The position numbers were made by a program, and so were the translations under genes. A DNA stretch of 64,000 bases, taken from the NCBI GenBank assembly GCA_035357855.1, contig DAOPOH010000001.1, positions 79,949-143,948 of the forward strand, written 5' to 3'. The stretch comes from Candidatus Cloacimonadota bacterium (lineage in GTDB: Bacteria; Cloacimonadota; Cloacimonadia; Cloacimonadales; Cloacimonadaceae). The notes beneath the pieces were generated by a model. The model was not told the DNA's origin and did not search any database. It worked only from the letters and a program-made list of their open reading frames with translations. Below, piece after piece: positions 6,422 to 54,666 of this stretch; position 1 is the first letter of the stretch, and each line of letters opens with the position of its first letter.

Positions 6422-6431
6422 AATTTTGTTC

Positions 6432-11840: not shown

Positions 11841-13880
11841 TTAAACTTGTTCCGGCCGACTTGTCCCCTCATTATTAACAGGAGGAGCGGTATTATCAGG
11901 AGTTTGTTCAGATTCCTTATTTTCTGAACCAGCTTCCGTTTCCTGTTTAATTTCTTTCTGCTTGGGAGAGTATTCAAAACGCATTTCCAAAGCCTGCTGA
12001 TATTTCTTCTCAACTAAATTGCGATATTCATCAGTGACATATTCTCTGATAGTGTCAAATATTTCCTCTGTGCCGAGCGTTTCTTTTTCCAGTAATTTTT
12101 TAGCTAAAACATCCATCAATTCACTGTTGTGAGAAAGTATATCCAGAGCTTTTTGATGAGCGTTATTAACAAAATTCCTGATTTCGGAATCTACTATTTT
12201 GGCAGTTTCTTCGCTATAAATATCGCGAGAAAGGATTTCTTTACCCAAAAAGATTTCTCCTTGGTCCTTTCCGACAGTCATCGGTCCGAGTTTATCGCTC
12301 ATTCCCCAAGAGCAGACCATTTTTTTAGCGATGTCAGTGCAACGTTCTAAATCATTTCCCGCGCCGGTAGTCAAATCGTTAAAGACCAATTCCTCCGCTG
12401 CTCTGCCTCCGACTAAAGTAACCAAAAGTTGCTCCAGATAGGCTTTTGAGTAATTGCTTTTGTCGCTCAAAAGAAATTGAGTAGCACCTCCGGAAAAACC
12501 GCGAGGAATAATTGAAACTTTATGCACAGGTTCAGTTTTGTCCTGAAAGATGGAAGTTAGGACATGGCCGACTTCATGATAGGCTGTAAGGCGTTTTTCT
12601 TCTTCAGGAATAACTCGGCTCTTCTTTTCTTTACCGAGAATCAGTTTGTCTTTGGCTGCTTCAAAATCTTCCATTTCAATCTGCTTTTTGTTCTTACGGG
12701 CTGCAATCAAAGCGGCTTCGTTAACAAGGTTGGCAAGGTCTGCACCGCTAAAACCCGGTGTTCCTCGTGCGATTAATTCCAGATTTACATCTTTTGCCAA
12801 GGGGACTTTGGCGCTGTGGACTTTCAGGATTTCCGCTCTTCCTTTGATATCAGGCAGGTCAACAACCACTTGTCTGTCAAAACGTCCGGGACGCAAAAGT
12901 GCCGGGTCAAGAATATCAGGTCTGTTTGTGGCTGCGATGATAATTACGCTGTCATTGGGCTCAAAGCCGTCCATTTCCACCAAAAGCTGATTCAAAGTCT
13001 GTTCCCTTTCATCATGGCCGCCGCCTAAACCGCTTCCGCGATGACGTCCAACAGCGTCAATTTCATCAATGAAAGTGATGCAGGGCGCATTTTTCTTGGC
13101 TTGGTCAAAGAGGTCTCTGACCCGAGCTGCACCGACGCCGACAAACATTTCCACGAAATCGCTGCCGCTGATGGAAAAGAAAGGCACACCAGCTTCGCCG
13201 GAAACTGCTTTTGCCAAAAGTGTCTTTCCTGTTCCCGGTCTTCCGATTAACAAAACTCCGCGAGGAATTCTTCCGCCCAAGCGTTGGAATTTACGAGGGT
13301 CTTTTAAGAAATCCACGATTTCTTGCAGCTCTTCTTTGGCTTCATCTACACCGGCAACATCTTTGAAAGTAATCCTATATTTACTTCCTTCGTAAAGTTT
13401 GGCTCTGCTTTTTCCGAAGCTGAAAGCTTTATTTTGACCTTGATTCATACCTCTGAAGAGCAAAAACCAAAAGACAATAATCAGGATTGTGGGGAAGAGG
13501 TAGACTAAAACACTGCGCCAAGCCGAAGGCTTTTGCGTACCGACAGAGACGCCTTTGCTCAAAAGGAAGTCAACCAGTTTGGGGTCGTCAAAAGGCATCA
13601 AAGTGTGGCCTTTACGATTATCAAATTCAAACATGATGTCTCTGTCCATAAAGGTAGCTTTGGATACTCTGCCGCTGTCCGCTAAAGTAACGAAATTTCC
13701 GTAGGGAACTTCTTCCACCTGTTTTTTGCCGCCTGCCCAAACTTGATAGAGCAAAGCTGCCAAGAGCAGCATCATAATCCAAAAAGAAAGAGACTGATGA
13801 GGCTTACGCGGTTTAATGTTTACGATATAAGGTTTTTTATTCTTATCACCCGAATCAGGCGGGTCAGATTTTTTATTCAT
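11841..13880 (-). CDS. ftsH: ATP-dependent zinc metalloprotease FtsH
   Basis: N-terminal TM helices, Walker [14 protein letters not shown], an SRH region and the zinc motif HEVGH. Confidence 0.95.
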
Positions 13881-22137: not shown

Positions 22138-25100
22138 CTAAAAGCGGAAGCTTCTTTTCACCATAACTTCATGAGCGTTTTCTTCATGTTTGGGGCGCAG
22201 ACTGAACGTATAAATAAATTTGAAGTTCCACGGTAAATTAAATCGGACTGAGGCATTGTGATACATATCCAATTTTGTTTGCTTAGCCAAGTCCGTTGTT
22301 TCCTGCAGATAAATTTCGTAGTCAAGATAAACACTGTGCCCCAAATATTTTCCCATAGAAACGGAAAGATTATTAAGAAAGACTGAGGAACTGAATTGCA
22401 AAATTTCAGTGTTTAGATTTGATATGTTTGCATCATTAAACTGATTTCCGGAAGTAAATTCCACGAACAGGTTTTGGACAAAGCCGGTGGTGATGGAAAA
22501 ACTGTCCAATCCCAAAAAACGGCGAATTTTATTTTCAATCGGACTGAGAAATTGAGAAACATAAGTGGTGCTGACACTCGTGCTTATCAGTTGCATGGCT
22601 TCGTCTTGTAAAAGCGCTTGCCTCTGGTCCGGATTAAGTTCGTCCAGATTTCTGTTGTAACGCAGACGAGAAAGAATTTGCGTGATTGTTTTGTCTTCAG
22701 GATTGTCACTGGTGAGACTGAATTCTAATTGGTTAAGGACATTGCCTCCTTTTTGGGGATTAGTGAGAACCTGCAAAGTGATTAATGTGCCGTCTGCAGC
22801 CTTTTTTGTGAAAACTCCGTTTATAGAGAAAACATTACTTTTTGAATTAATGACCAGAACGGCGTTTTTCACTTCAAAGATAGTTCCGTAAAAATCAACA
22901 GTCCCCTTCTCGGAAGCGAAATTAGCCTCTTCAGCATACCAGTTATTTCCGTCATAAGTAATGCGCAGAAAACCTCCGGGTTGGCATGTTAAATCTGCAG
23001 GATAAGTTACATAACGAATATTGTCACCAACATCTATAAGAAGGTCAAGCGTGAAAGGAAGAGGTAAAGCTTCCGTTTGCTCTTTCTTGCCGAAAAGATT
23101 AATCAGTTGAAGCAAGTTCTTCGTATTTGCGGGATAAACAACACTGCCGTTGGATGCAATAATTTCCGCTTTAATTTTCATATCGTCAAAAGGACCTTTG
23201 ATATAAGCTTCACGAGTGCCTTGCCCTTTAATGATACCGGTTGCGACTGTATTGTCAGGAAGGTATCCAGGAATATATATTTTTAAGCCGTTGTCATTGG
23301 TATGAATTAAAAAGTAACCAAGATTTATGGGTCCTAAAAAGAAATTATCCTCATTGGGATCAATATCATTACGAATATACAGCTTCCCTGCACCCTCTTC
23401 ACAAGTGAATTTTTCCAAATGTAGAACATTATCTCTTATCACTGCGTTGATCTCGAGATTGCTAAAAACATCATCCTGACTTTTCAACTTGAAAGTTCCG
23501 TCCGACAAATTAATTGTTCCCCTTTTGACGATTATGCCTTCTTCGCCGGTTCTGATAGTCATATCGGCAACAAGATTGCTTTTTGTCGCTTGGACAAAAG
23601 GAACGAAATGATGTAAAATGCGTAACGGGTCTCCGGTTAAAGTTAAATTTAGAGAATCTGTTCCTTCATAGCTGTTGCCGGAGAAAAAATTGTAATCAAG
23701 ACCACCCTGAGCGGAAAGAGTTGCTAATTTTTTATTGCTTATGTATAAAGAATCAACTTGCAAGACCTCGTCTAATTGTGCCGCCTTGATGATAACAGCA
23801 TCAAGCGGAATTTCAAAAAGAGAAGTTCTTTCACCGCTTATATTACAACCTAATTCTGTATGCGGTTTACCCTGACGCGGCAAAGTAAAATTCAAATTTA
23901 CATCACCGCTGATCCAGCCTTTTAGCATTTCCTTTGGAACTATTTCTGCCAAATTGAAACGCTTTAAAACGGCATTTGCTTTCAAATTGAGTTCAGGTTG
24001 ACGAACGAGTAAACCTTGTATATTAATATTATTATTAGAATATGAAATACCGGTATTAATTAAAGTGGAATCGCTCGTTCCGGAAAAATTCAAGTTCAGA
24101 TTCATAGGGTGCAATTGAGCTAATTGGACGGGATTTATTGTCAGAAAGCCGGTCACTTGTTTATCCCGATTAAGATTATAATCCAAATCAGCGGAAAGTT
24201 CGGCATTCAGAGGAAGTTTATTTTTACCGGGAACAAACATTGTCCAATATTTTGCGAAATCAAGGCTGTCCGTATAGAGAGAAAATCCGCTGTCAAAGTA
24301 GTCTGAAATATTAGTCCATCCGCTTACGACTAATTTATCGTCTAAATTGAAATTATTAACATGGATATATTTACCGTCATAATCGGCTTTCAAACTAAGC
24401 TCGAAAGGCATTCCCGCAGCTTGAGAATTTTCTGTCATCAGAGAAAGTTCTGCATTTTTTTGAGCAGGGTCATAACTAAAAGCGGATATGAAATCACCTT
24501 TTATCGAATTAGGAGAAATCAGATTTATTTTTAATTCGGCTGAACCCGAAAGTTTATCATTGCTATACAGAGCATTTACCTTTCCGCTTGTTATTAAGTC
24601 GATGCCGTTTTCTTCAGCTTTCAGCCAATATTCTTGTAAATTAAAATCAGTTAAGGTGGCAGCAGTTACCAAGTTACTGTTTTTGAGCCCGCCTTGAGAA
24701 CGCACAGCAAATCCCTTACCGTCACTCAAATCTATATCTAAGTTTAAATTTTCGATTGAAAAGTTCGGCAGATTAATAATGGCGTAACCATGCAATCCGG
24801 AAAGATTTATTTCGGCAGATGCTGCATCCAAAGTCCGGAGGTTAACTGTCGCTTTGAGTCCTTGAACAAAATTCAGGTTTGCCGATAAATCGGATTTTAC
24901 TCTTAACTCCGCTTTTTCAGAGGTTGGAGCCGTAGCCAAAGAAATGTCCATTTGACGGTTGTCCAAATCATAGACACCTGCTAATGATGATGTCTGTTGC
25001 CGCCAGGAAAATGGTTGAGTTGTAAAATTGACTTCTTTTCCGTTATATTCTGCAGTTACTTTTATGTCTGTAATTCTTTCTTGTTTTACATTAAGTTCGG

Positions 25101-26166
25101 GAACAGTGATATGACCGGAAGCGGTTAAGGAGGAAACTTTTCCGTTTAGATTGACAATTCCTTCAGCAGTGCCATTTAGTTCGGGAGAAATATCTGAAAG
25201 CGATAATTGCGATAAAATAATCTGACTGTTGATTGCAGGTTCTTTCAGAATATCGGATAAAGAGCCTGTTGCCCTAAACCTGTTATCATTCAATAAACTT
25301 TCGCTGATGTTAAAGTTAGTAATATTTTGATTTCCTTCTATTTGCATATAAGGGAGTTGCAACTTATATTTGTCTTTCTGGATAGAAGTATTCCACAAAA
25401 TAGAATTAAAACTTATAGTCGGTTGGGCAGAAGGTTCTTTTTTCCTGTATTTCAACAAAACAGAAATTTCAGAATCCAAATTTTGACAGCCGGATAAATA
25501 TATTGAGCGCGGTCTATATTGCTCCAGCATAATGTCTATTAAGCTGATATTTCCCTTATTCATTGTAACTTTTAGTTTAACATTACCGTGATTAGAAGTT
25601 TCTGTTTGGAGCATAGCATTTGTTTTATTTTTATTTACGGCGGAAAGAGTTATGTTATTAAACTGTTCATTGTATTTAAGACTGTCTGCAAAAGAGCTGC
25701 CTAATTGAGTTGCAAAAGTGAAATCTGCTTTGCCGTTCTTAACTGTGAGAGTGCGAAAATATGGTGTCAAATCCGGAATTTTGAATGCTTTCTTTTCTTT
25801 TTGCGGCTTATAGATATAAACTATTTTTGCCGCAGGCTCATAGACTATGATTTCCCGAATAACGCTGTTCAGCTTAAAGCCGGAAGTTATGATTTTAAAT
25901 AAATTATAATTGATTTGAACCTGAGCCGCTTTAACATATACAGTATTTTTATCATCGCGGAAGGATATATTGTTTGCGGTAATGTGGCGTTCATTGACTG
26001 CTAATTTTTCTATGGTCAAACTGCCGTGAAGTTGTTGACTGAGATATTGTTCCAGTTTACTTTTTACTTTTTCCTGACCATCTAAAGTATACCATAAAAT
26101 GAAGAAGGTTACATTAATTATCAATAATATAAAAACTATAATTAAGAACCATTTAGGATGTTTCAT
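22138..26166 (-). CDS. TamB / AsmA-like translocation and assembly module protein
   Basis: 1342 aa with a single N-terminal TM anchor (WFLIIVFILLIINVTFFILWY). The body is long, repetitive and beta-rich, and the C-terminus is aromatic (KRSFRF). Size and architecture are typical of TamB (DUF490). Confidence 0.6.
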   Translation of the reverse strand: MKHPKWFLIIVFILLIINVTFFILWYTLDGQEKVKSKLEQYLSQQLHGSLTIEKLAVNERHITANNISFRDDKNTVYVKAAQVQINYNLFKIITSGFKLNSVIREIIVYEPAAKIVYIYKPQKEKKAFKIPDLTPYFRTLTVKNGKADFTFATQLGSSFADSLKYNEQFNNITLSAVNKNKTNAMLQTETSNHGNVKLKVTMNKGNISLIDIMLEQYRPRSIYLSGCQNLDSEISVLLKYRKKEPSAQPTISFNSILWNTSIQKDKYKLQLPYMQIEGNQNITNFNISESLLNDNRFRATGSLSDILKEPAINSQIILSQLSLSDISPELNGTAEGIVNLNGKVSSLTASGHITVPELNVKQERITDIKVTAEYNGKEVNFTTQPFSWRQQTSSLAGVYDLDNRQMDISLATAPTSEKAELRVKSDLSANLNFVQGLKATVNLRTLDAASAEINLSGLHGYAIINLPNFSIENLNLDIDLSDGKGFAVRSQGGLKNSNLVTAATLTDFNLQEYWLKAEENGIDLITSGKVNALYSNDKLSGSAELKINLISPNSIKGDFISAFSYDPAQKNAELSLMTENSQAAGMPFELSLKADYDGKYIHVNNFNLDDKLVVSGWTNISDYFDSGFSLYTDSLDFAKYWTMFVPGKNKLPLNAELSADLDYNLNRDKQVTGFLTINPVQLAQLHPMNLNLNFSGTSDSTLINTGISYSNNNINIQGLLVRQPELNLKANAVLKRFNLAEIVPKEMLKGWISGDVNLNFTLPRQGKPHTELGCNISGERTSLFEIPLDAVIIKAAQLDEVLQVDSLYISNKKLATLSAQGGLDYNFFSGNSYEGTDSLNLTLTGDPLRILHHFVPFVQATKSNLVADMTIRTGEEGIIVKRGTINLSDGTFKLKSQDDVFSNLEINAVIRDNVLHLEKFTCEEGAGKLYIRNDIDPNEDNFFLGPINLGYFLIHTNDNGLKIYIPGYLPDNTVATGIIKGQGTREAYIKGPFDDMKIKAEIIASNGSVVYPANTKNLLQLINLFGKKEQTEALPLPFTLDLLIDVGDNIRYVTYPADLTCQPGGFLRITYDGNNWYAEEANFASEKGTVDFYGTIFEVKNAVLVINSKSNVFSINGVFTKKAADGTLITLQVLTNPQKGGNVLNQLEFSLTSDNPEDKTITQILSRLRYNRNLDELNPDQRQALLQDEAMQLISTSVSTTYVSQFLSPIENKIRRFLGLDSFSITTGFVQNLFVEFTSGNQFNDANISNLNTEILQFSSSVFLNNLSVSMGKYLGHSVYLDYEIYLQETTDLAKQTKLDMYHNASVRFNLPWNFKFIYTFSLRPKHEENAHEVMVKRSFRF

Positions 26167-29071: not shown

Positions 29072-29671
29072 TTATACGAAGATATTGAACAAGGACATTG
29101 CTATTCCTGCGCTGATGGGAATTTTGATATTATCATCCACCGGAATATTCCAAATTTCCGCTAAGGTTGCCATAAGGCATCCTACCACGTATATTAAAGG
29201 ATTTATGCGATTTCCGAATATAAGGGAAAAGATAAGAATACCGACAAAACATGCCAAACTTCCTTCCAGGGTCTTGTTTTGTCTTAAATATTTACGCTTG
29301 CCTTTGGTCATGCCGACTGTAGCAGCCAAGGTATCTCCAACCGCCAAATAACTCATTGACAGAAATGCGATTTCCGGTTTGAAAAAGGCAGTGCAAAGCA
29401 TAGCGGATAAAATAACAAATGTTGCTCCGGTAAAATCTCGTCTTTCATGCCTGCGCAAAAGAGGGCCGAAAAGCTTGTGGAAAAGTTTTCTGAAAGTCGG
29501 CTGTTCCAATCTTGCCATTTCAATCGCAAAATCCAAAATAAGCGCTCCTAAAAGTATCAGAAACATAAGCAGCCGATTGTAATTGAAAATATATCTATAA
29601 GAAAAAGGAATAATCAGAGAGCAGACATGAATGGACTTACGGATAACCTCATTTGCTTGCTTCTTTTTCAT
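29072..29671 (-). CDS. polyprenol (dolichol/phytol) kinase / CTP-transferase-1 family membrane protein
   Basis: A 199-aa polytopic membrane protein with an N-terminal RKSIH motif and a C-terminal GD..A loop, as in the SEC59/DGK1/VTE5 family. Confidence 0.5.
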   Translation of the reverse strand: MKKKQANEVIRKSIHVCSLIIPFSYRYIFNYNRLLMFLILLGALILDFAIEMARLEQPTFRKLFHKLFGPLLRRHERRDFTGATFVILSAMLCTAFFKPEIAFLSMSYLAVGDTLAATVGMTKGKRKYLRQNKTLEGSLACFVGILIFSLIFGNRINPLIYVVGCLMATLAEIWNIPVDDNIKIPISAGIAMSLFNIFV

Positions 29672-29725: not shown

Positions 29726-31285
29726 CTAAGCGCTTTCCGGCTCATAATCCAATATTTTGATTAAATTAGGGCCTTTTAACTGAATTGCAATTTTGCCTTT
29801 GAACTGAGGGTCAAAACTCATACCCCCGTTATCCAAACTGAAGAGAGCAGTGATTTTTTTAATTGTGCAATCCGTAATTACCAAAACCGGTTCGGGATTT
29901 TCTTGTCCGTAAGGCAGCAAAAGTTCCAATTCCTGCCATAAATTATTATTCAACTCTACGGAAGAAAGAACAGCATCCACTTGTAATATAAGAGCTTGCT
30001 TTATTGCTTCGGAACGCGGTTGCAGATAAGCGTGAAATTGTTCTATGAATTTGTCGTAATTTTCAGGCTGCATTGTAAATCCTGCCGCTTTAGCATGACC
30101 GCCAAACTGGAGCAAACTGTCTTTGCAGGCAGTAAAGGCTTCCACCATATTGAACCCCGTATCGCACCTGCCTTCGCAAGCAAGAGTGTGGTCTTTTTTC
30201 TTGAGCATAAGCGCCGGTATTTTTAGATTATTGACTACATAAGTGGCAGCGGTCCCCAAAAGAGAATAGGGGATTAGGTCATCATCGTCAAGATAAATGA
30301 AAGCGTCTCCGTTGAAGTTTTCCATCATTGTATCCATTAACTTGAAAATCCTATTCATTTCCATTTCCCACTTATTTTTTTCTTCTTCCAGAATTTGAAA
30401 AGAGTGAGCTTTTTCATCACTTACTTGGAGCATGAAACGAAGGGCAAGATGCTGACCGTTTTCTTCTCTGCCGTTAGCCAAAAGTCTGCTGCAGAATTGA
30501 ATAAAATTCATTTTATCGGTTGTGGAGGAAATCCGATTAAAATTCCTCAGCAAAAAATCTATAGTATTATCTTTTGCCGTTTGCCAATTGTCTAAAACGA
30601 AGCGAATAAGAATGCGATTAAGATCGGTCATCGGAACTTTGTCTGCAATGGACCCGACTGCTGTCCAAAAATACAATGCAGGGTCTATCGGATGGTTCAA
30701 TATCTTTCCTAAATATCGAATCAGCATAAGCGTTACACCCACTCCTGCCAACATCTTAAAAGGATATATGTCATCCGGTAACTGCGGATTAACAATCGCA
30801 TAGGCATTCGGCATTTGGTCCGGCTGAACTAAATGATGGTCGGTTACAATAACATCACAGCCCATCTTATTTAATTCTTCCACTCCTTCGTATGCGCTGA
30901 TACCGTTATCCACTGTTATGACCAAAGGGTAGTTTCCGCTTTGGGCAAAATTCAGGAATGAAGGCTGAATGCCGTGCGGTTCCAAATTGCGGTTCGGAAT
31001 GTAATACTGATGCTTTTGATAGCCGCAGGCTTCCAAAAAACAGTATAAAATGTAAGCGGAAGTAATGCCGTCCGGATCATCATGCCCAAAAATTACCAAA
31101 GGTTCGTTACGATAAAGAGCTAATCTGATTCGCTGTGCTGCTTTGTCTATATTGCTTAGTAAACTTTCATCCGGCAAATCATCCAAGGTCTTATGCAGCG
31201 CATCATCAGTTAAACCTCTTGCTTGTAAAACCTGCTGCCAAACAGGCTGACCGGGTTGCGTCTTAATCTGCCAACGCATCTTCAT
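29726..31285 (-). CDS. recJ: single-stranded-DNA-specific exonuclease RecJ (DHH family)
   Basis: DHH-family motifs IFGHDDPDGITS, TVDNGIS and VTDHH, with a DHHA1-like GGHAKAAG. Confidence 0.8.
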   Translation of the reverse strand: MKMRWQIKTQPGQPVWQQVLQARGLTDDALHKTLDDLPDESLLSNIDKAAQRIRLALYRNEPLVIFGHDDPDGITSAYILYCFLEACGYQKHQYYIPNRNLEPHGIQPSFLNFAQSGNYPLVITVDNGISAYEGVEELNKMGCDVIVTDHHLVQPDQMPNAYAIVNPQLPDDIYPFKMLAGVGVTLMLIRYLGKILNHPIDPALYFWTAVGSIADKVPMTDLNRILIRFVLDNWQTAKDNTIDFLLRNFNRISSTTDKMNFIQFCSRLLANGREENGQHLALRFMLQVSDEKAHSFQILEEEKNKWEMEMNRIFKLMDTMMENFNGDAFIYLDDDDLIPYSLLGTAATYVVNNLKIPALMLKKKDHTLACEGRCDTGFNMVEAFTACKDSLLQFGGHAKAAGFTMQPENYDKFIEQFHAYLQPRSEAIKQALILQVDAVLSSVELNNNLWQELELLLPYGQENPEPVLVITDCTIKKITALFSLDNGGMSFDPQFKGKIAIQLKGPNLIKILDYEPESA

Positions 31286-32517
31286 TCGGTAATTTCCTCC
31301 GCTTTAGGAATTTCGCGAGGAGCAGAACGGTCGTATGCTTTGGTCAAGATATCAAATCCGGTCATTCCTATCATAAACATCAGGGCTCTGTCTTGCAGAT
31401 TGTTATCATCTAAATTTCCGCGCCAGGAGTATTGCACACCGAAATCCAATCGCGTTTCAACTCTCTTTAGCGGTATAGCAAAACCACCGGTAACAGCAGT
31501 TTCACGAACGGTATTTCCATTTGCTAAAAATGGCAATTCCCTGAAGGTTACTCCGCAACGCTTATTCATTTGCCCAACGAATGTCTTGTGTGAGTGTTCT
31601 TTGGGCTCATGTGCGAAGCCTATACCCATTTTCCAACTGTTATGATTCATTCTTGTATTATTTGTTTTGTCCCAAAAACTATATACATAATCTCCGGAAA
31701 TCTTGTATTCATCTGCAAATTTAGCAGTAAGTCCTGTTCCTAATTCATCCGGAACATCAAATTTTGCATCTCCGGCGTTTTCAGTTTCAAAAATTGAAGA
31801 AAGTGTCCTGCTGCCTTCCAAAGTCCGTCCCAAAGAGTAATATAGTCCCAAGGCAATATTATTCCAATCGCCCGTAAAGCCGAAAGTGGCAGAAGGATTT
31901 TTGAAAGTATATGCATCTTTATACACTGCGTTAAACGGCTCAAAATCAATGTCCTGAGCTACTCTTCTGATATCGTGGCCAAAATAATAATTCAAAGCCG
32001 CACCCCAATTCATGTGCTGATAGTGAATGGCATAAATCAAGTCTGCGCGATAGATATATCCGTCAATCGATTGCAGTTCTAAAGCTGAAAGTGTGTCACC
32101 GGTTTCAGTATATGCTGTAAATCTTTTCCTGCTTTGAACTGACCCGGAAGAATAGGAATTGAATTGGAAGCCGAAATGATGATTTTTTAGCGGAACTGCC
32201 ACACTGAAATAAGGAAAATCAAGAGAGTTATCCCTATATGATTTTTCTTCTTCATCTCTTGATTTATAATTTGTCCAGCCGCAAAGAATACCGGTTGAAA
32301 ATTGAGTTGCAGTGATTGAACCCAAGATTGCGGGATTGCCGTAACCAAAATTGCGCCGGAAAATATCTGAAATTCCAGTATCTCCCATGCTCATCCCGTA
32401 AATATCGTTGCCGTAATTTTTGCAAGCCATTCCGTCTGCAGAAAAGATGGAATTACCGGCACTCAGACCGGTGCTCAAAATAATCATCAAGAATATTAGT
32501 AAATAATGCAATTTCAT
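31282..32517 (-). CDS. hypothetical outer-membrane beta-barrel protein
   Basis: It has a signal peptide (MKLHYLLIFLMIILSTGLSAG) and alternating aromatic/hydrophilic beta-strand patterns. I recognised no family. Confidence 0.4.
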   Translation of the reverse strand: MKLHYLLIFLMIILSTGLSAGNSIFSADGMACKNYGNDIYGMSMGDTGISDIFRRNFGYGNPAILGSITATQFSTGILCGWTNYKSRDEEEKSYRDNSLDFPYFSVAVPLKNHHFGFQFNSYSSGSVQSRKRFTAYTETGDTLSALELQSIDGYIYRADLIYAIHYQHMNWGAALNYYFGHDIRRVAQDIDFEPFNAVYKDAYTFKNPSATFGFTGDWNNIALGLYYSLGRTLEGSRTLSSIFETENAGDAKFDVPDELGTGLTAKFADEYKISGDYVYSFWDKTNNTRMNHNSWKMGIGFAHEPKEHSHKTFVGQMNKRCGVTFRELPFLANGNTVRETAVTGGFAIPLKRVETRLDFGVQYSWRGNLDDNNLQDRALMFMIGMTGFDILTKAYDRSAPREIPKAEEITE

Positions 32518-33341: not shown

Positions 33342-33566
33342 TCAATCAAAAATAATTATAATAATCTTGTCAAAGGATTTTCTCAGACATACATTTTGCC
33401 TTGATGAATGAAAAGTGACAAACCAAAATGCAAAATAATAAATCTCCGAAAAATTCAAGTCAAGACATTCTTTTCTGAACTCGCCATTTAGGTTTTCTAC
33501 AAAGGGGTTCTGCTGAGGTTTACCGTGAACAATGAAGCTGAGATCAACCTTATTATCCTGAGACAT
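33342..33566 (-). pseudogene. IS3-family (IS2/IS407-type) transposase C-terminal relic
   Basis: Residues DLSFIVHGKPQQNPFVENLNGEFRKECLDLN (about 33456-33545) match the conserved rve-domain end PGKPxQNxFIExFNGxxRxECL, which contains the catalytic Glu. Nothing else of the roughly 280-aa OrfB is present. Confidence 0.6.
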
Positions 33567-34309
33567 TAATAAGATATATCGTCAAAAGGAACTGGCTTGA
33601 TATGACCAAGAATCTCACCTGTGACAGCATCTATATATAAAATATGGGCTTCTCCACTTGGCCCGACTGAGTATGGCATTCTCCAGCAAACCTTATAATG
33701 CTCAGGTCTTCTTATATGTTGAAACTCAGGGGAATAATTCCGAGAAATTAACAATTCATCTTTAAATCTTTGCTTATAATCATTACCAATTTTTTTATCA
33801 AATATTCTAAGCGCTTCCTCGTAAGTCAGATACTTTGACTTAACAAAGTGTAAATCCGGTATAAGAGAACTAATAATATTAACTTCTATAAAGTTCTTTG
33901 TCCTAAACACTACCGTAATACCTGAATGCGGTTCCATTTTCAGATTATCGATTTTCTGATTAAAAGACACCTTGATTCCCATATCATCAGTTCTCATACT
34001 TTTTAGAGATAGTTGATTTATATCTACTCTGATATACGGCAGCAAATTACTGATGAGTAACAAGGCTTGGGATTGGGCCTCAACGGTATCTCTAACTTCA
34101 CAATTTGGAAATGTTCCCCACATTTCCTCGATAACACTTGCGTCCAAGTCAAAGTTTATGGTTCCACGAAATCCAGTCTCTGCTTTAATTCTATCTACCA
34201 ACTGACGTTCTTTTGCTTGCCTTTCAGCCTCTTCAGCCGGCATACTATCTGCATAAATACACGATATGAAAAGTAATAAAATAATGAATGCCAATGAAAT
34301 GCGTACCAT
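33566..34309 (-). CDS. secreted FTP/PepSY (protease-propeptide-like) family protein, paralog 1
   Basis: It has the signal peptide MVRISLAFIILLLFISCIYA, the conserved helix EEAERQAKERQL..IKAETGFRG and a C-terminal PepSY-like ILYIDAVTGEILG. An SD (GAGGGAGAG) lies upstream. It is the most diverged member. Confidence 0.6.
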   Translation of the reverse strand: MVRISLAFIILLLFISCIYADSMPAEEAERQAKERQLVDRIKAETGFRGTINFDLDASVIEEMWGTFPNCEVRDTVEAQSQALLLISNLLPYIRVDINQLSLKSMRTDDMGIKVSFNQKIDNLKMEPHSGITVVFRTKNFIEVNIISSLIPDLHFVKSKYLTYEEALRIFDKKIGNDYKQRFKDELLISRNYSPEFQHIRRPEHYKVCWRMPYSVGPSGEAHILYIDAVTGEILGHIKPVPFDDISY

Positions 34310-34415
34310 TTAACTCTCCCTCATATCTTTTTTTATCTGACAATTCTGTTTATTATAGCTTATAGCTTGTAGGTTTGTATATTTATAATGTGAAATTTTC
34401 GATACTATGTTTCTT

Positions 34416-35156
34416 TTATTTATCATCCATAGTCATATCAACTATCTTGTAAACTTGTCCGGTTTGTGCATCAACATATATAGTCCTTGTGTATCCACCA
34501 GTCCAGCAGAGACGATACTCTGTTCTGGTGTCCCCTTCCCATTCATTATAAATGTTGCAAAAGCGCAAACCCAGAAATGGTCTTCTTTCACGTATGTTCT
34601 TTATGGTTTCATCATCTTTGACATTATCATCATATATTATAACTGCATCTTCGTAGGTAAGGATTGGAGTAATAGTTTGACTCGGCAATTCCACAGTTCC
34701 ATTACTGATAGAGAATCTGTATCTTCCCGCATCGTAAGCTATTAATATTAAACCACCATTTTCAACTCTATATCCATTCACTGTTTGGCAGTACTCTGTT
34801 TCGGTTCTCCCCAAATTATTACTTATTCTGCTCATTGATAATTGACTGCGCGTAGCTAAGGTGTAGGGTAAGAGTTTGTCTATAATCCTATTACATGCTT
34901 GCCTGAAGGAAGTAGTATCTTCATCAGCAGAGAATGGAATATCGGTAAAGTTACCTTCTAACTTTCCGATTCCCATAGTTATGTCGTTAAATTTAATTTC
35001 CCCTCTAAAACCAGTCTCTGCTTTAAATCTATCTGCTACCTGACCCAACTGGTGTTCTTTGGCTTGCCTTTCAGCTTCTTCAGACGGTAAACCATCTGCA
35101 TAACCATAAGATATGGCTAGTAGCAAAATGATGAATACTAATGAAATTCGTGCCAT
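34416..35156 (-). CDS. secreted FTP/PepSY (protease-propeptide-like) family protein, paralog 2
   Basis: Signal peptide MARISLVFIILLLAISYGYA. An FTP-like stretch (TEYCQTVNGYRVENGGLILIAYDAGRYRFSISNG) is followed by a PepSY-like stretch (LTYEDAV...EYRLCWTGGYTRTIYVDAQTGQVYKIVD). An SD (GGGAGGA) lies upstream. Confidence 0.65.
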   Translation of the reverse strand: MARISLVFIILLLAISYGYADGLPSEEAERQAKEHQLGQVADRFKAETGFRGEIKFNDITMGIGKLEGNFTDIPFSADEDTTSFRQACNRIIDKLLPYTLATRSQLSMSRISNNLGRTETEYCQTVNGYRVENGGLILIAYDAGRYRFSISNGTVELPSQTITPILTYEDAVIIYDDNVKDDETIKNIRERRPFLGLRFCNIYNEWEGDTRTEYRLCWTGGYTRTIYVDAQTGQVYKIVDMTMDDK

Positions 35157-35222
35157 TTTATTGTCCTCCCATTAGATATTATTGTATCTTCTATTTATTA
35201 TTTATTTAAAAATATGATTTGA

Positions 35223-35954
35223 TTAGTTATTATTTAGAATATCTTTCTTATCAATGTTCCTAATTACAGAATTAGATACATCTATGTAAATTGAATAACC
35301 GTAAAAGGATAGTACATAGCACAGATAATACCGGTTTCCGTTCTTATCATCTCCCTTTACGTAAGCTATCCTTGGGTTATTTGGTTTATCGTTATCTCCG
35401 ATAAGCTTATTATCCTGTGCTATTTTTACTGCTTGTTCCAAAGATATATTTATTGTGATATTTTCAGGCAATTCCACGCTACCGTTACTGATTCTAAAAC
35501 CATTGCGTCCGACTTCATAGACAATTGTAAGTTTGCCGGCTCCTTCCACCCGATAACCATTGATCTGTTGAAAATACACGGCTCTAATATACCCCGTTTG
35601 CTTTGAAATTTTTGATCTACTCAGGTGTTCACGTTTGGCAAAGGTATAGGGCAGGACTTTATCTAGTATCTGCTCGAACACCACTCTGAAAGAAGCTGTG
35701 TCGGCATTTGCAGTTATCTGAATGTCAGCAAATTTACCTTCTAAAAAGCCCAAGCACATCCTATTTGTATCATAGTTTATCTCCCCTCTAAAACCAGTCT
35801 CTGCTTTAAATCTATCTGCTACCTGATCAAACTGACATTCTTTGGCTTGCCTCTCATCTTCTTCAGACGGAAAACCATCTGCATAACCATACGATATGCC
35901 TAGTAGAATAATAATGAATGCCAATACTATGCGAACCATGTTATCTTCTTTCAT
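35223..35954 (-). CDS. secreted FTP/PepSY (protease-propeptide-like) family protein, paralog 3
   Basis: It shares the N-terminal module: 44 nt are identical to paralog 2 over QVADRFKAETGFRGE. It has an FTP-like QQINGYRVEGAGKLTIVYEVGRNGFRISNG and a different C-terminal module (YYLCYVLSFYGYSIYIDVSNSVIRNID). The start may be M6 at 35939. Confidence 0.6.
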   Translation of the reverse strand: MKEDNMVRIVLAFIIILLGISYGYADGFPSEEDERQAKECQFDQVADRFKAETGFRGEINYDTNRMCLGFLEGKFADIQITANADTASFRVVFEQILDKVLPYTFAKREHLSRSKISKQTGYIRAVYFQQINGYRVEGAGKLTIVYEVGRNGFRISNGSVELPENITINISLEQAVKIAQDNKLIGDNDKPNNPRIAYVKGDDKNGNRYYLCYVLSFYGYSIYIDVSNSVIRNIDKKDILNNN

Positions 35955-36052
35955 TATTTTTGTTTTATCTTACCTGTCTATATATTTTTTTTATCGTTTA
36001 TGAGTTTATGATCATATAATGTAAATATTCCCGATATTATGGTTTGCCTCTA

Positions 36053-36790
36053 TCAATCCATAGTCATATCAACTATTTTGTAAACTTGTCCGGTTTGTGC
36101 ATCGATATATATAGTCTTTGTATAGCCACCTACCCAACATAGACGATATTCTGATCTGGTGTCCCCTTCCCATTCATTATAAATGTTGCAAAAGCGCAAA
36201 CCCAGAAATGGTCTTATCTTTCGTATGTTCTTTATAGTTTCATCGTCCTTGACATTATCATCATAGATTCTAACGGCATCATCGTAGGTAAGAGCCGAAG
36301 TAACATTTCCCTCCGTTAACTCTACAGAATTATCTCCTATATCGAATCTATTCCTACCGGCATCATAAGTGATAACAATAAACCCGCTATTTTCTACTTT
36401 GTATCCATTAACCCATTGCTCATATTCAGTACTGGTATAATTTCCTTGTCTTTTTGTCCGATTCATAGACAATTGGTTGCGTTTAGCTAATGAATAAGGC
36501 AGTATTTTGTCCAATATGGCATTACATACTTGCCTAAATGCAGTAGTATCGGAATCAGCCAAGTAAGGGATATCAGCAAAGTTACCTTCGAATGACTGAA
36601 GTTTCATTCGATTATAATCATAATTTACTTCACCTCTAAAACCAGTCTCTGCTTTAAATCTTTCTGCTACCTGATCCAACTGACGTTCTTTCTCTCTACG
36701 TCCAGCTTCTTCAGCAGAATAATCATCTGCAAAAATACACGATATAAAAAGCAATATAATAATGAATACCAATGAAATTCGTGCCATCAT
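36053..36790 (-). CDS. secreted FTP/PepSY (protease-propeptide-like) family protein, paralog 4
   Basis: The start is taken at ATG-ATG (36790), which is preceded by GGAGGAG and aligns with the M-A-R-I-S-L start of the other paralogs. Of the C-terminal 79 aa, 71 are identical to paralog 2. Confidence 0.65.
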   Translation of the reverse strand: MMARISLVFIIILLFISCIFADDYSAEEAGRREKERQLDQVAERFKAETGFRGEVNYDYNRMKLQSFEGNFADIPYLADSDTTAFRQVCNAILDKILPYSLAKRNQLSMNRTKRQGNYTSTEYEQWVNGYKVENSGFIVITYDAGRNRFDIGDNSVELTEGNVTSALTYDDAVRIYDDNVKDDETIKNIRKIRPFLGLRFCNIYNEWEGDTRSEYRLCWVGGYTKTIYIDAQTGQVYKIVDMTMD

Positions 36791-36964
36791 AGTCTCCTCC
36801 AACTTTCCATATGATTTAACTTTTAACTGTTGATTCACCAATGTTAGTGTAAATTCCAACTCATTGTTTCTCAGGTTGTTTTAGGGCATCTGATATCTCT
36901 CGTTACTCACAATCTATGTAATGCCAAACGACAACTTTCATTATTTTCATCTTATAAATTCAAG

Positions 36965-37261
36965 TCAAGTTTTTTTAAAATAAGCTAACTTATTTCTAAT
37001 GGCATCGGCTTTTTCAGGTTTTCTCTGATTTTTTCCATAGTTTCTGATAGGCACATATCCGGTCTTCTGAATAGCCTTGCAAGAGCGCAACGGATCTTTT
37101 ATCAACGGCAGCAACCCCAGCAGATCAGTTTTGGACATTTTGCTCCGGGCATTGCACATCAGGTGGACAATACAGTGTTGCTTTAGCTGACCGTAAACCA
37201 TTTTGCGAAATAACTTGACCAATTCCGCTCTTTCATCTTTCTTTTTCATTGGTTGAGTCAT
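36965..37261 (-). CDS. hypothetical small basic protein (98 aa)
   Basis: The start is taken at MTQPM (37261), which has a strong SD (AAGGAG) 6 nt upstream. The protein is Lys/Arg-rich and contains an HCxxHxxC cluster. I recognised no family. Confidence 0.4.
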   Translation of the reverse strand: MTQPMKKKDERAELVKLFRKMVYGQLKQHCIVHLMCNARSKMSKTDLLGLLPLIKDPLRSCKAIQKTGYVPIRNYGKNQRKPEKADAIRNKLAYFKKT

Positions 37262-37706
37262 GATCTTCTCCTTGTCTTTTAGTTTTATTAAAACCATCAA
37301 AACAAAGAGACAGATCCGGCTCAACCTTTTTCTTCATTAGGTTCACCTAATTTACACCAACCTTTGAGACACTACCGGAATTCCATTTAGTTTATGTTTA
37401 ACACCGTTTGTCTGTGGAAGAATTCAGAACTACGAAACGGATTCGAGTGCATTGAAGTCCTTTTTAACTCCCAAAAAACACCAGAAAAGAGCGTAATAAA
37501 GAAGTTATTACATTTCATGCTTCATAAAATTATGCTAACCGAAATTTATACTGAAATTTATTTGGAATAGGTAACACCCTTGCATATAAACAGTATTCTA
37601 AGGCTGACGAAAGAAAAAAGAAACGCAAAAAAGCAATTTGGTCTTGACAAAAAAGAGAGAAAAATTGGATTGAACCGTAATTGCATTAAGAACGGAGATA
37701 ACAAGC

Positions 37707-37783
37707 GGGGGCGTAGTTCAGTTGGTTAGAACGTCTGCCTGTCACGCAGAAGGCCGCGAGTTCGAGTCTCGTCGCTCCCGCCA
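37707..37783 (+). tRNA. tRNA-Asp (anticodon GTC)
   Basis: GGGGGCG acceptor stem, TAGTTCAGTTGGTTAGAA D-arm, anticodon loop CT-GTC-AC, GAGTTCGAGTCTC T-arm, CGCTCCC, discriminator G and an encoded CCA. Confidence 0.93.
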
Positions 37784-52047: not shown

Positions 52048-54666
52048 CTGCAGCTTATTCACGCTTCTGATTTCACTTTAGTAAACGGCTTCAAAGTCAT
52101 CTTTGCTCGTGATAATTCCAATTCGCTTGTTAACTTGCAATTGTATATCAGAGTAGGTTCTGTTTACGAAAATAAACAAACCTCAGGATTTGCTCATTTA
52201 ACTGAGCACATGACCTTTAAAGCAACTCAAAATTATCCAGATAATTTTATTTCTTATTTTATTTCCGATTTGGGCGGTGTGATAAACGCTTATACGGAAT
52301 ATGATACCACCTGTTATTACGTTATGATGCCCTCCGAGCATTTGGAGAAAGGCATTTCTGCTCTTTCCGATTTGGCGTTCAGAGCCCTTATGCGAGAAAA
52401 TGATTTGGAAATAGAAAAAGATATTGTCTGCGAAGAAATTAAGCAAAACGCCAATGACCCTGATACCGGCTTTCTGGATTGGATTCAATCTACATATTTT
52501 ACTTCATCGCCTTTAAAAAATTCCGTTTTAGGCACTGCAGAAACAGTTCGAAATGCTACTTCCGCTCAATTGAAAAATTTCTACAAAAAGTATTATTTGC
52601 CTCAAAACTCTTTTTTTGTTGTTACCGGCTGTTTTGAGCCTGCACATTTAAGGAAACTTACTAAAAAGTATTTTGCTGATTGGCGTGGGGAAAAATCCCT
52701 CTCTCGCTGTAAAAAGATTTATTTACCTGAAGCAAACGGTTTTGGATATAATGATAAAAAGAAATCTGCCAACGGAGATTACATAGCTTTCGTAATTCCC
52801 GAATTGGAAGCAACAAATTGTCTTAGTGATGCCAATCTTTTTCTAACCAGAGCTTTTGCTTCAGGAAAGCAGAGCCGCCTTTACAAACGCCTGATTGAAA
52901 AAGATAAAACTGCTCTTGATATCCGTCTTTATTCTGTCGGAGGCTTACTTCCCGGCATAACTGTAATTCAAATATTACCTTATAATTCCGAAACAGTGCC
53001 TGATGTTATTTATGCTTTTTATGACGAATGGCTCAAGGTCGGGCAAAATTGTTTTTCTGTTTCGGAGCTTGAACTTTTGCAAAAGGAAATGTTTTATTCT
53101 TGGATGTATGACTTTGAATATCTTGAAGCTTTGGGCGGCAGTCTTGCAGATGAGGAATTGACGAAAGATTACAAGGAGCATTACAAATTTCCGGAAAGAA
53201 TTGCAGCAGTCACTTACAAAGAATTGAAAGAATGTCTTGATTTATTGTGGCAATCTCATTACTTAAGTATTTATTATCAAGGTAAAGAGCTTCTGCCCCA
53301 TCTCATAGTCAATAATATTCGCAAACTTTTTTCTTCTTTACCTGCACCCGCCTTTAAAGTTCCTGAAGCAAAAATCCATAAAGACTTTATTGCCCAAAAA
53401 TTACTTTCCCAATCAAAAAAAATATCAGACAGCAGTCTTAAGGAAGTCGAAATCACGAAATTACCAAACGGACTTAGGCTTATCCTGCGCAAAGTAAAAA
53501 ATAAGCCAGTATTCGGAGTTGCGTTATCCTCCTCAGTTTCCCAATTAATGGAACGAGAAAATGAGAGAGGTGTCAATTTTCTTACCTCCGATATGCTTTT
53601 ATTCGGCACTGAAAAGCATAATTACGACGAAATTCAGAAGCTGTGCCTCAATGAAGGTTTTCCCGTAAAGATAAGCCGAACTTTGGAAACGACCACTTTG
53701 TCGGGAAAATGCCTTGAATTTAATTTGGATACATTATTATCTTTGTTAGCGGAAATTTGGCAGCATCCCATTTTTCCGTCCAAATATTTGCGTCAAGCCA
53801 AAGCCACTGTTTGTGAAAATACCAGAAGAGAAAAAAGCAATCCCTTTTCCAATGCATTTAACCGTTGGTCAAAATTGCTCTTGGGCGCAGAAACTAATCT
53901 GAACAAACCATATTCCACTGTTACTAAAACATTAGCCATTACCGAAAGTCAAATCCGGCAATGGTATAATACGCATTACGGGCTTGAAAATTGTGCTTTG
54001 ACAGTTGTAGGTGACTTTGATTTCCGACAAGTGAAAGAGCTTTGCGCCAAGTATTTCAATATTAGAAAGCCTTCGCCCGTTAAACAAAAGCCTGCCCCAT
54101 ATTTTCATTCTTCCTTATCCCGAATTAAATATGCTAAAGCCGCTTCCGATCAATCAAATGTGATTATGGGTTCTTGGTGTTGTCCTACTTCGGATTTGAC
54201 TTCTCTTACTGCTCTATATATTTTGGCTCAAGCATTGGGCGGCGATTTAGGCTCACGTTTTTTTTACTTGTTAAGAGAAAAATATGGTTATGCATATCAA
54301 ACGGGTTTGGATTTTGCCGCCATTCGTTCGCTTGGTTATTGGTATGGTTACGCTATTTGCGATAGAAATGACTTTAGCGAAGTGCGGCAATTGATGCAGG
54401 ATATCATTGCCGATGTCTATCAACACGGTTTAACGGAAGAGGAAATAACCTCTGCCAAAAATTACCTGAAAGGTGTCCAAAGAATGGATTTGGAGAGTTT
54501 GCGTTGGCAAGCGACAAGCCTTTCAGGAATGTCAGTTTCCGGATATAATTGCGATTATTTCTTCAATTGGGAAGATTGGGTGGAAAAGGTAACTTTAGAA
54601 GACATCAAACAATTGACCCAAAAGTGGTTTAATCCGGACAATCTATACCTCTATTTGGAGAGATGA
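52048..54666 (+). CDS. M16 (pitrilysin/insulinase) family zinc peptidase, fused two-module form
   Basis: It carries the HxxEH motif (FAHLTEHM) and the Glu of the EKDIVCEEI region. The conserved N-terminal strand FTLVNGFKVIFARD lies upstream of the first canonical start (TTG at 52135). I therefore call a CTG start at 52048, with GGAG 7 nt upstream; see the finding. Confidence 0.7.
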   Translation: MQLIHASDFTLVNGFKVIFARDNSNSLVNLQLYIRVGSVYENKQTSGFAHLTEHMTFKATQNYPDNFISYFISDLGGVINAYTEYDTTCYYVMMPSEHLEKGISALSDLAFRALMRENDLEIEKDIVCEEIKQNANDPDTGFLDWIQSTYFTSSPLKNSVLGTAETVRNATSAQLKNFYKKYYLPQNSFFVVTGCFEPAHLRKLTKKYFADWRGEKSLSRCKKIYLPEANGFGYNDKKKSANGDYIAFVIPELEATNCLSDANLFLTRAFASGKQSRLYKRLIEKDKTALDIRLYSVGGLLPGITVIQILPYNSETVPDVIYAFYDEWLKVGQNCFSVSELELLQKEMFYSWMYDFEYLEALGGSLADEELTKDYKEHYKFPERIAAVTYKELKECLDLLWQSHYLSIYYQGKELLPHLIVNNIRKLFSSLPAPAFKVPEAKIHKDFIAQKLLSQSKKISDSSLKEVEITKLPNGLRLILRKVKNKPVFGVALSSSVSQLMERENERGVNFLTSDMLLFGTEKHNYDEIQKLCLNEGFPVKISRTLETTTLSGKCLEFNLDTLLSLLAEIWQHPIFPSKYLRQAKATVCENTRREKSNPFSNAFNRWSKLLLGAETNLNKPYSTVTKTLAITESQIRQWYNTHYGLENCALTVVGDFDFRQVKELCAKYFNIRKPSPVKQKPAPYFHSSLSRIKYAKAASDQSNVIMGSWCCPTSDLTSLTALYILAQALGGDLGSRFFYLLREKYGYAYQTGLDFAAIRSLGYWYGYAICDRNDFSEVRQLMQDIIADVYQHGLTEEEITSAKNYLKGVQRMDLESLRWQATSLSGMSVSGYNCDYFFNWEDWVEKVTLEDIKQLTQKWFNPDNLYLYLER

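Follow-up and report, generated by a model that had tools for sequence, protein, structure and literature searches.

Cloacimonadota are abundant, mostly uncultured fermenters of protein and amino acids in anaerobic digesters. In a 64,000-nucleotide stretch of DNA from one of them (Candidatus Cloacimonadota bacterium, contig DAOPOH010000001.1, positions 79,949 to 143,948; hereafter the window), four tandem genes, paralogs A–D, encode proteins that look exported, resemble the FTP and PepSY propeptide domains of M4 and M36 proteases and carry no catalytic domain, which raises the question of where propeptides without a protease come from and what they might do. Judged from sequence, the module that makes up A–D is the prodomain of a Cloacimonadota-specific, exported, type IX secretion system (T9SS)-dependent family of putative zinc peptidases. 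The locus leads to a phylum-wide HExxH family that combines an M4/M36-style prodomain with a catalytic domain that matches neither a Pfam or NCBIfam profile nor a PDB sequence, and it leads also to a larger set of genes that encode the prodomain only. We set out below the evidence for this parent family, the origin of the four-gene array from it and the readings of what the free prodomains now do.

A prodomain with and without its catalytic domain

The preliminary description of this DNA reported four minus-strand paralogs built on one plan, and this holds in full: the genes lie where it placed them (Table 1), encode 243–247 amino acids (aa) and carry every motif that it quoted (M-[AV]-R-I..FII.LL.IS..A directly before D, the charged helix, RFKAETGFRGE, Q.VNGY[RK]VE and IY[VI]DAQTGQVY). 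They are true paralogs that align over their full length, with 30–36% identity to A and ~69% between B and D. A putative signal peptide and a charged helix can be read in each copy; all four N-termini follow M-[AV]-R-I-x-L-x-F-I-I-x-L-L-x-I-S-x-x-x-A-D, with a basic residue ahead of a hydrophobic core and a small side chain at −1. The N-terminus of A fits the PROSITE lipobox pattern (LFIS-C17), as does that of D, and A is a possible lipoprotein on this pattern; we rejected lipidation as a feature of the family because B and C carry Tyr where the lipobox has Cys. Clear Shine–Dalgarno sequences precede A (GAGGGAGAG), B (GGGAGGA) and D (GGAGGAG, ahead of ATGATG). All four proteins stop just past the PepSY-like domain, with no C-terminal sorting domain (Por_Secre_tail/TIGR04183) and no family match in NCBIfam.

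Profile searches place these proteins only at the edge of the known domain families. Against Pfam PepSY (PF03413, gathering score 24 bits), A reached 20.3 bits (E 6.8e-4) and B 12.3 bits, and C and D gave no match; weak PepSY matches occurred in 15 of 41 family members (best E 2.9e-5), the full-length protein at the syntenic locus L033 scored above the cut-off with 29.1 bits, and the relative P0038 carries a precomputed PF03413 match (here and below, L-numbers denote loci and P-numbers protein matches of relatives). Pfam FTP (PF07504) matched none of A–D and scored weakly in relatives (E 0.049 and 0.14). The family profile itself was more sensitive: its C-terminal third (positions 160–240) retrieved bona fide multi-PepSY proteins at E 1e-11 to 1e-5, and its positions 59–236 retrieved the FTP protein P0172 at E 7e-6, whose own Pfam FTP match has E 5e-11. 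With hhalign, family residues 115–242 were co-linear with the FTP and PepSY segments of the LasB pre-pro sequence (probability 67%), residues 115–150 falling on FTP. The family motifs Q.VNGYRVE and Y[IV]DAQTGQV resemble the consensus published for M4 enzymes in FTP (...YxQTYNGIPV...) and in PepSY (...FIDAETGKV...; PMC7851659).

Structural modelling pointed the same way for the C-terminal half. An AlphaFold2 (AF2) model of B, computed from a 41-sequence alignment, had a mean predicted local distance difference test score (pLDDT) of 87 and a predicted template modelling score of 0.77, and comprised a signal helix (residues 2–20), the charged helix (24–48), an alpha/beta domain (50–152) and a helix–helix–four-strand PepSY-like domain (168–240). 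In this model the last domain appears as a helix on a four-stranded antiparallel sheet and is predicted to resemble solved PepSY domains: among the 50 Foldseek matches listed, the sole significant PDB match was to the PepSY domains of YpeB (5boi; E 4.2e-6, probability 1.0, TM-score 0.33), and no M4 pro-enzyme was among them. Profile searches of PDB sequences with the prodomain family (alignment A2), the catalytic family (alignment A3) and the protein P0048 returned nothing meaningful. The FTP and PepSY call of the preliminary description, which it had staked on a significant profile or structural match, therefore survives in part: the YpeB match, the profile retrieval, the L033 score and the LasB alignment speak for it, the Pfam scores of the window copies stay below threshold, and the call is right only as remote homology.

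The parent of the module emerged from an exhaustive profile search against 1.84 billion representatives, made with the family profile of the prodomain. (Two profiles are used in this work, PRO for the prodomain, from A2, and CAT for the catalytic domain, from A3.) The search returned 180 relatives, many of them proteins of 610–1578 aa with the module at residues 1–240. Every member longer than ~410 aa that begins with the module has HExxH at about residue 405–420 and AMDEAFAxY 25–40 residues further on. The catalytic region aligns over ~260 columns in A3, in which H78, E79, H82 and E106 are invariant, and its conserved blocks are (I/V)RHE(L/M)SH, AMDEAFAxY, NE..YS.Y, IASAWW.LR, RYKPRYFYNILM and AY..RG.HF.P.V. 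By these motifs the relatives' domain would be of gluzincin type, with HExxH and a conserved downstream Glu as putative third zinc ligand, both of which the window genes lack. HExxH...AMDEAFAxY closely resembles the M4 motif HELTH...NEAFSD (PMC7851659), and hhalign of the catalytic domain with thermolysin aligned only the HExxH..xEAxx segment (probability 34%). The full-length proteins run from the prodomain through a small beta-sandwich and the HExxH...AMDEAFAxY catalytic domain to a C-terminal beta domain; members of ~1500 aa add a von Willebrand factor A-like region and end in a T9SS sorting domain (Por_Secre_tail/TIGR04183; L046, L055 and L023).

The preliminary description had likened the module to the propeptides of M4 and M36 enzymes; no profile identifies the cognate protease as M4 or M36, the parent being this unannotated HExxH family. 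All named members, and likewise the prodomain-only genes, are annotated only 'hypothetical protein' in the sources consulted, and in a word-indexed homolog search P0048 returned itself only and A3 at least 10 short entries, unnamed or 'hypothetical protein'. One HExxH family member occurs in Ca. Syntrophosphaera thermopropionivorans W5. Two members of the wider family, on contigs of 1.7–1.8 kb (L059 and L032), come from metagenome-assembled genomes labelled Gammaproteobacteria and Eubacteriales, which probably reflects mis-binning rather than occurrence outside Cloacimonadota.

Origin of the array at an ancestral protease locus

Gene order in distant relatives bears directly on where the array came from. 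At L020 and L033, whose flanking proteins are 36–63% identical to those of the window, the order RNase R, yicC, miaB-like, NusG_II, radical SAM, kdtA and tRNA-Asp is kept, and at the position of the array these loci carry one or two full-length genes with prodomain and catalytic domain. The locus is thus ancestral for the protease family and the array a degenerate or derived state. The preliminary description had taken the array for an accessory islet; that it was acquired as one is an idea that we abandon because distant relatives keep kdtA, tRNA-Asp and then full-length family genes at the same spot. An integrative island at tRNA-Asp was likewise rejected: the tRNA and the family adjoin in the distant relatives, and the transposase fragment of the IS3 family on the other side of the array is an old relic common to the close relative L012. 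Repeat finding detected no inverted repeats and no attachment-site-like direct repeats flanking the array.

Close relatives (L010, L011, L012 and L013) show the locus in a different state, and copy number differs between these near relatives and the window. The flanking genes of L012 have a synonymous divergence (dS) of 0.01–0.045 from those of the window, and between them L012 carries D, C, an open reading frame (ORF) of 342 aa (P0048), the 98-aa ORF for a second time, two B-like copies and one A-like copy. In L012, P0048 immediately follows copy C, and it aligns with the whole catalytic region, including HELSH...AMDEACAEY. The C-like gene of L012 contains a TAG (TAT-to-TAG) inside its PepSY domain, and a G7 homopolymer run shifts the frame between this gene and P0048 (L012:7433-7530); because of this TAG and frameshift, we read the two together as one disrupted pro-enzyme gene. 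The nonsense codon and the G7 state are identical in four independent assemblies (L010, L011, L012 and L013). Positions 38000–35235 of the window are 97.4% identical to L012 4752–7514, after which similarity breaks; window copy C ends, with NIDKKDILNNN and its stop codon, exactly at the break, and L012 7515–9140 is wholly absent from the window. Relative to L012, copy A is recombinant; the counterpart of B is one of the two B-like copies there. The exact four-gene arrangement of the window, with all ORFs intact, was found in six independent assemblies. These comparisons show that the array arose through duplication, recombination and loss of the catalytic part at the ancestral locus, and its origin by catalytic-part loss from protease genes is well supported.

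Traces of the same history are visible within the array. A repeat family, D1, comprises the 5' segment of each gene, with its signal peptide and charged helix, in four copies of 169 nucleotides (nt) that are 62–86% identical to the reference copy and spaced 783–848 nt apart. Sliding-window identity between paralogs is 70–90% in the 5' windows versus 27–69% in mid-gene. Over their last 200 nt, B and D are 84–92% identical, and for the 3' stretches at 34425-34724 and 36056-36355 the range is 82–92%. This mosaic of similar ends (5' in all four copies, 3' in B and D) and diverged mid-gene regions suggests gene conversion or recombination inside the array. The array has a G+C content of 0.33–0.38 versus ~0.39–0.43 in its flanks. 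A promoter scan was uninformative (21 sites, 18.8 expected), a terminator scan found no terminator-like site inside the array, and we treated antisense ORFs within the genes (for example 34407-34745) as due to chance.

The boundaries named by the preliminary description, an IS3 transposase relic on one side and a basic ORF and tRNA-Asp on the other, are all real (Table 1). The IS3 relic abuts the stop codon of A and matches only the end of the integrase core, over 31–36 residues (rve_3 positions 2–32 of 67; IS3 297–333 of 369); no complete IS3 transposase with a DDE integrase core was found at this flank. Positions 34141–33001 of the window match L012 11838–12981 at 89%, and the relic, being common to both, is old. 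The basic ORF is more likely to start at ATG 37261, going by its sequence context. It has no family in Pfam or NCBIfam, and tblastn against all loci recovered it from this species and the L012-type strain alone. It could be a regulator specific to the lineage or belong to the duplicated unit. L012 has two copies of it (5490-5783 and 8680-8976), each heading a block of prodomain genes, and the window and L012 versions differ by four non-synonymous and no synonymous changes. An Rfam scan of the window returned two tRNAs and nothing else. Elsewhere in the window lie a tricorn-like S41 peptidase of 1061 aa with PD40 repeats (3272-6457, minus strand), FtsH (11841-13880) and an M16 pair (52135-54666), the sole peptidases among the ten large window ORFs scanned. 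At E 1e-4, Pfam gave no match for three large conserved minus-strand ORFs, at 22138-26166 (1342 aa), 31282-32517 (411 aa) and 29072-29671 (199 aa); all three are syntenic in L012, and the two shorter ones start with what looks like a signal peptide.

Table 1 Features of the array and its flanks, with examples of the full-length family (positions are those of the window unless a locus is given; PRO HMM, hidden Markov model of the prodomain)
Feature	Position	Strand	Details
IS3-family transposase relic, C-terminal integrase-core fragment, 74 aa	33342-33566	minus	Pfam rve_3 E 7e-7; NCBIfam IS3 E 1.3e-4
Paralog A, prodomain-only	33566-34309	minus	247 aa ORF; PRO HMM E 5e-66, HMM positions 1-238
Paralog B, prodomain-only	34416-35156	minus	246 aa ORF; PRO HMM E 5e-110; copy modelled structurally
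Paralog C, prodomain-only	35223-35954	minus	243 aa, or 238 aa from second ATG 35939; PRO HMM E 4e-97
Paralog D, prodomain-only	36053-36790	minus	245 aa; ORF open back to TTG 36859; PRO HMM E 7e-112
Repeat family D1 (5' gene segment: signal peptide and charged helix)	34146-34314 (A), 34993-35161, 35776-35944, 36624-36792	minus	Repeat finding
Small basic ORF, 98 aa from ATG 37261, isoelectric point 10.2	36965-37261	minus	AAGGAG Shine–Dalgarno; upstream of array
tRNA-Asp (GTC)	37707-37783	plus	ARAGORN; Rfam tRNA 71.3 bits
HExxH family examples	P0053, P0055, P0058, P0068, P0070, P0076, P0081; L020:9848-12193; L033:10001-12442; L055:9941-14506		

Maintenance, decay or a new role

If the prodomain-only genes were simply broken protease genes, their ends should fall anywhere. 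We collected 171 distinct prodomains from loci and protein matches and classed as stand-alone those with a stop no more than 25 aa past the domain end: 121 were stand-alone, 36 were fused to a catalytic domain, 4 came from double-prodomain proteins, 2 were cut by contig ends and 8 had other tails, counts to be read with the caveat that the profile was seeded with stand-alone members and that long genes are cut more often on short contigs. Truncation is non-random, because random cuts in a gene of 750 aa would not give 121 ends at the domain boundary versus 8 elsewhere. Many species (L001, L002, L022, L024, L046, L048 and others) have complete ORFs for the prodomain only, frequently in tandem. 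In a rough neighbour-joining tree, free and fused forms are interleaved, and there are deep clades of free forms only, one with A, the most divergent of the four copies, and another with B and D. Across species, the ratio of non-synonymous to synonymous substitution rates (dN/dS) of free forms was 0.12–0.24 with saturated dS, and that of the prodomain of two full-length orthologs was 0.56. Column conservation correlated strongly between free and fused forms (Spearman 0.86), and both share the near-invariant residues F44, K45, E47, T48, G49, F50, G52, G68, F70, D80, P97, L106, Q124, G128, A171, L216 and D229 (numbering of window copy B). Our conclusion from these data is that stand-alone prodomains are maintained as a gene class, and that individual copies, C especially, may be in flux.

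Free and fused forms also coexist, and conversions from the fused to the free form can be seen. Both occur within one genome or contig in CAYVXJ01 (L024, L046, L048 and L056), in JAJBAW01 (L020 and L058) and on the contig of P0042 and P0053; prodomain-only genes sit beside full-length genes at L046 and L042, and split genes occur at L038 and L057. At L038:2532-5195, a TAG at codon 237 interrupts an otherwise intact frame of 888 codons, and at L057:7788-9845, a TAA at codon 251 interrupts one of 686 codons, each exactly at the boundary between prodomain and catalytic domain. Everything downstream of the two stops is intact, including HExxH...AMDE(A/T)FAEYW, and the two Cloacimonadota genomes are unrelated. 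These stops could be recent nonsense mutations tolerated only there, or sites of regulated read-through. Separately, two tandem complete prodomain modules with no catalytic domain make up P0049 (471 aa), L039:10768-12183, P0061 and P0062.

We lean towards reading A–D as free-standing prodomains of the Cloacimonadota exported zinc metallopeptidase family that inhibit or chaperone family proteases in trans, a role ascribed to them by analogy and, in our judgement, somewhat probable. Each product would be exported through Sec, lose its signal peptide and stay in the periplasm or cell envelope; A–D are more likely periplasmic than released, the T9SS sorting domain of the full-length enzymes being absent from them. 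In the periplasm or envelope each product would bind family catalytic domains in trans, by analogy with M4/M36 prodomains, which act in cis, and with YpeB, which acts on SleB; binding would keep the enzyme latent and/or aid its folding before T9SS export. The divergent paralogs may serve different enzyme variants. A bolder version, which we put forward tentatively and regard as rather unlikely, holds that prodomain-only genes are a selected and repeatedly re-invented periplasmic 'safety-catch' class for T9SS-secreted zinc peptidases, made by boundary stops, with the four copies as a specificity panel and with read-through that may give much free prodomain and little enzyme.

Several observations weigh against free-standing trans regulators. 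Neither hmmsearch nor tblastn found a family catalytic domain, or a remnant of one, within the 64 kb, so the window holds no target protease; another prodomain-only gene of the L012-type genome is solitary, with no protease nearby. In L012 itself the nonsense codon of the C-like gene falls within the PepSY domain. That the HExxH domain is a peptidase we infer from motifs only, the domain having no match in Pfam, NCBIfam or PDB sequences, and a single-sequence AF2 model of P0048 was unusable (pLDDT 34). The signal peptides and the periplasmic location are, for their part, read directly from the protein sequences. Copies D and C, moreover, differ between the window and L012 by 2 synonymous and 12 non-synonymous changes, against 40 and 32 in six flanking genes (Fisher p = 0.007), an excess that fits relaxed constraint as well as diversification.

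Relaxed constraint would be expected if A–D were decaying remains of tandem protease genes that had lost their catalytic halves, without function and still open only owing to their short length and the recency of the losses. The locus is indeed degrading, with its IS3 relic, a G+C content below that of the flanks and, in L012, a catalytic part surviving only as a remnant, alongside a nonsense codon and the G7 frameshift, and some relatives end in odd truncated tails (P0035, 313 aa; P0032, 389 aa; L027, 369 aa); the recent non-synonymous excess in D and C belongs here too. We nevertheless consider decay unlikely: the ends cluster at the domain boundary, deep prodomain-only clades span species with intact ORFs and a dN/dS below that of the prodomain of full-length orthologs, the conserved residues are those of fused prodomains, the identical four-gene array is intact in six independent assemblies and the Shine–Dalgarno sequences are good. 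A maintained gene could also have kept the fold and changed its partner. PepSY-type binders of this kind would act on a non-protease in the envelope or have some other envelope role, by comparison with YpeB and SleB, and it is to YpeB and not to an M4 pro-enzyme that the sole significant structural match among the 50 listed points; in other phyla many PepSY proteins carry S-layer or anti-sigma modules, no protease gene lies near the solitary copies and the window lacks the family protease. Yet the conservation pattern equals that of catalytic-fused prodomains, which speaks for an unchanged binding partner; the tree mixes free with fused forms and some conversions are recent, so that the lineages concerned have had little time to acquire a new partner; and no conserved non-protease neighbour was seen across the loci. 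We hold a new partner to be quite unlikely.

The same divergence can be turned outward, in line with the secreted, diversifying inhibitors or decoys of the preliminary description, here taken to be released against foreign M4/M36-like proteases of competitors in a proteolytic community. Strong mid-gene divergence between paralogs with common 5' ends, copy number that varies between strains and the recent non-synonymous excess would all suit such a role. Release from a diderm cell is, however, not expected, because A–D, unlike the full-length enzymes, carry neither a T9SS sorting domain nor another signal for outer-membrane export. The prodomain, moreover, is homologous to that of the lineage's own enzymes and not detectably to M4/M36 at Pfam thresholds. 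The proposal thus divides: an inhibitor or chaperone acting in trans is still the most plausible function, and the secreted decoy with foreign targets is weakened, A–D being more likely periplasmic, to the point where we judge it very improbable. Action in trans on the lineage's own enzymes is the reading that we carry into the comparison below.

Comparison with known systems

FTP and PepSY prodomains are chaperone-inhibitors of M4 and M36 enzymes (PMC13556211). Like the prodomains of M4 (thermolysin, LasB) and M36 (fungalysin), the module places an FTP-like segment (Q.VNGY.VE...G) ahead of a PepSY-like one whose end reads (Y/F)(I/V)DA.TG.V, and in full-length relatives it lies N-terminal to an HExxH...(D/N)EAF domain, for which it is predicted to serve as intramolecular chaperone and inhibitor. 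Unlike them, the window module stands alone and falls short of the Pfam FTP and PepSY thresholds, the A–D family has an extra charged helix and a beta-beta-alpha unit before the FTP-like part, and the relatives' catalytic domain matches no M4/M36 profile and spaces its HExxH and Glu motifs by 25–40 residues versus ~19 in M4/M36. Neither A–D nor the rest of the window contains a Peptidase_M4 or M36 catalytic domain, as the preliminary description had already stated, and we do not assign A–D to either family.

YpeB of Bacillus, whose PepSY domains embrace SleB in trans (PMC13556211), is the best structural match and the sole significant one among those listed, and combines tandem PepSY-type domains with the function of a trans chaperone-inhibitor of an exported hydrolase. 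It differs in being membrane-anchored, with three PepSY domains and a helical bundle, in belonging to another phylum and in having as partner a peptidoglycan lytic enzyme co-encoded in its operon. Spi of Streptococcus pyogenes is described, in a source citing Kagawa 2005 (PMC2873492), as a propeptide-like inhibitor encoded next to speB; like Spi, A–D are separate genes homologous to a protease propeptide and devoid of a catalytic part. Spi, however, belongs to a C10 cysteine-protease system, is a single gene adjoining speB and is not exported, whereas the array has four tandem copies of a metallopeptidase class with a predicted inhibitor role and no adjacent protease in the window. Location beside the cognate protease does hold in some relatives, at L046 and L042 and in the split genes of L038 and L057. 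Generic multi-PepSY proteins, retrieved by the C-terminal half of the family profile, have likewise been proposed as peptidase regulators, but they are PepSY repeats only, in many cases next to SLH or RsgI modules, and lack the conserved RFKAETGF helix, the FTP-like half and a demonstrable parent protease.

Stand-alone PepSY proteins were proposed as peptidase regulators of the envelope or environment by Yeats, Rawlings and Bateman in 2004 (as cited in PMC13556211 and PMC7851659), so a regulator of this kind is already known. What is new is a demonstrable parent enzyme family that lacks annotation in Pfam and NCBIfam, the visible conversions from enzyme to prodomain, including the boundary stops of L038 and L057, and a free form that is numerically dominant and tandemly amplified within one phylum. 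Propeptide-like inhibitors are otherwise represented by MEROPS types I9 and I29. If free prodomains of Cloacimonadota act in trans, an idea that the PRO and CAT profiles make directly testable, they would amount to a counterpart, among bacterial metallopeptidases, of Spi and of the I9 and I29 inhibitors, and a natural case of enzyme genes becoming regulator genes.

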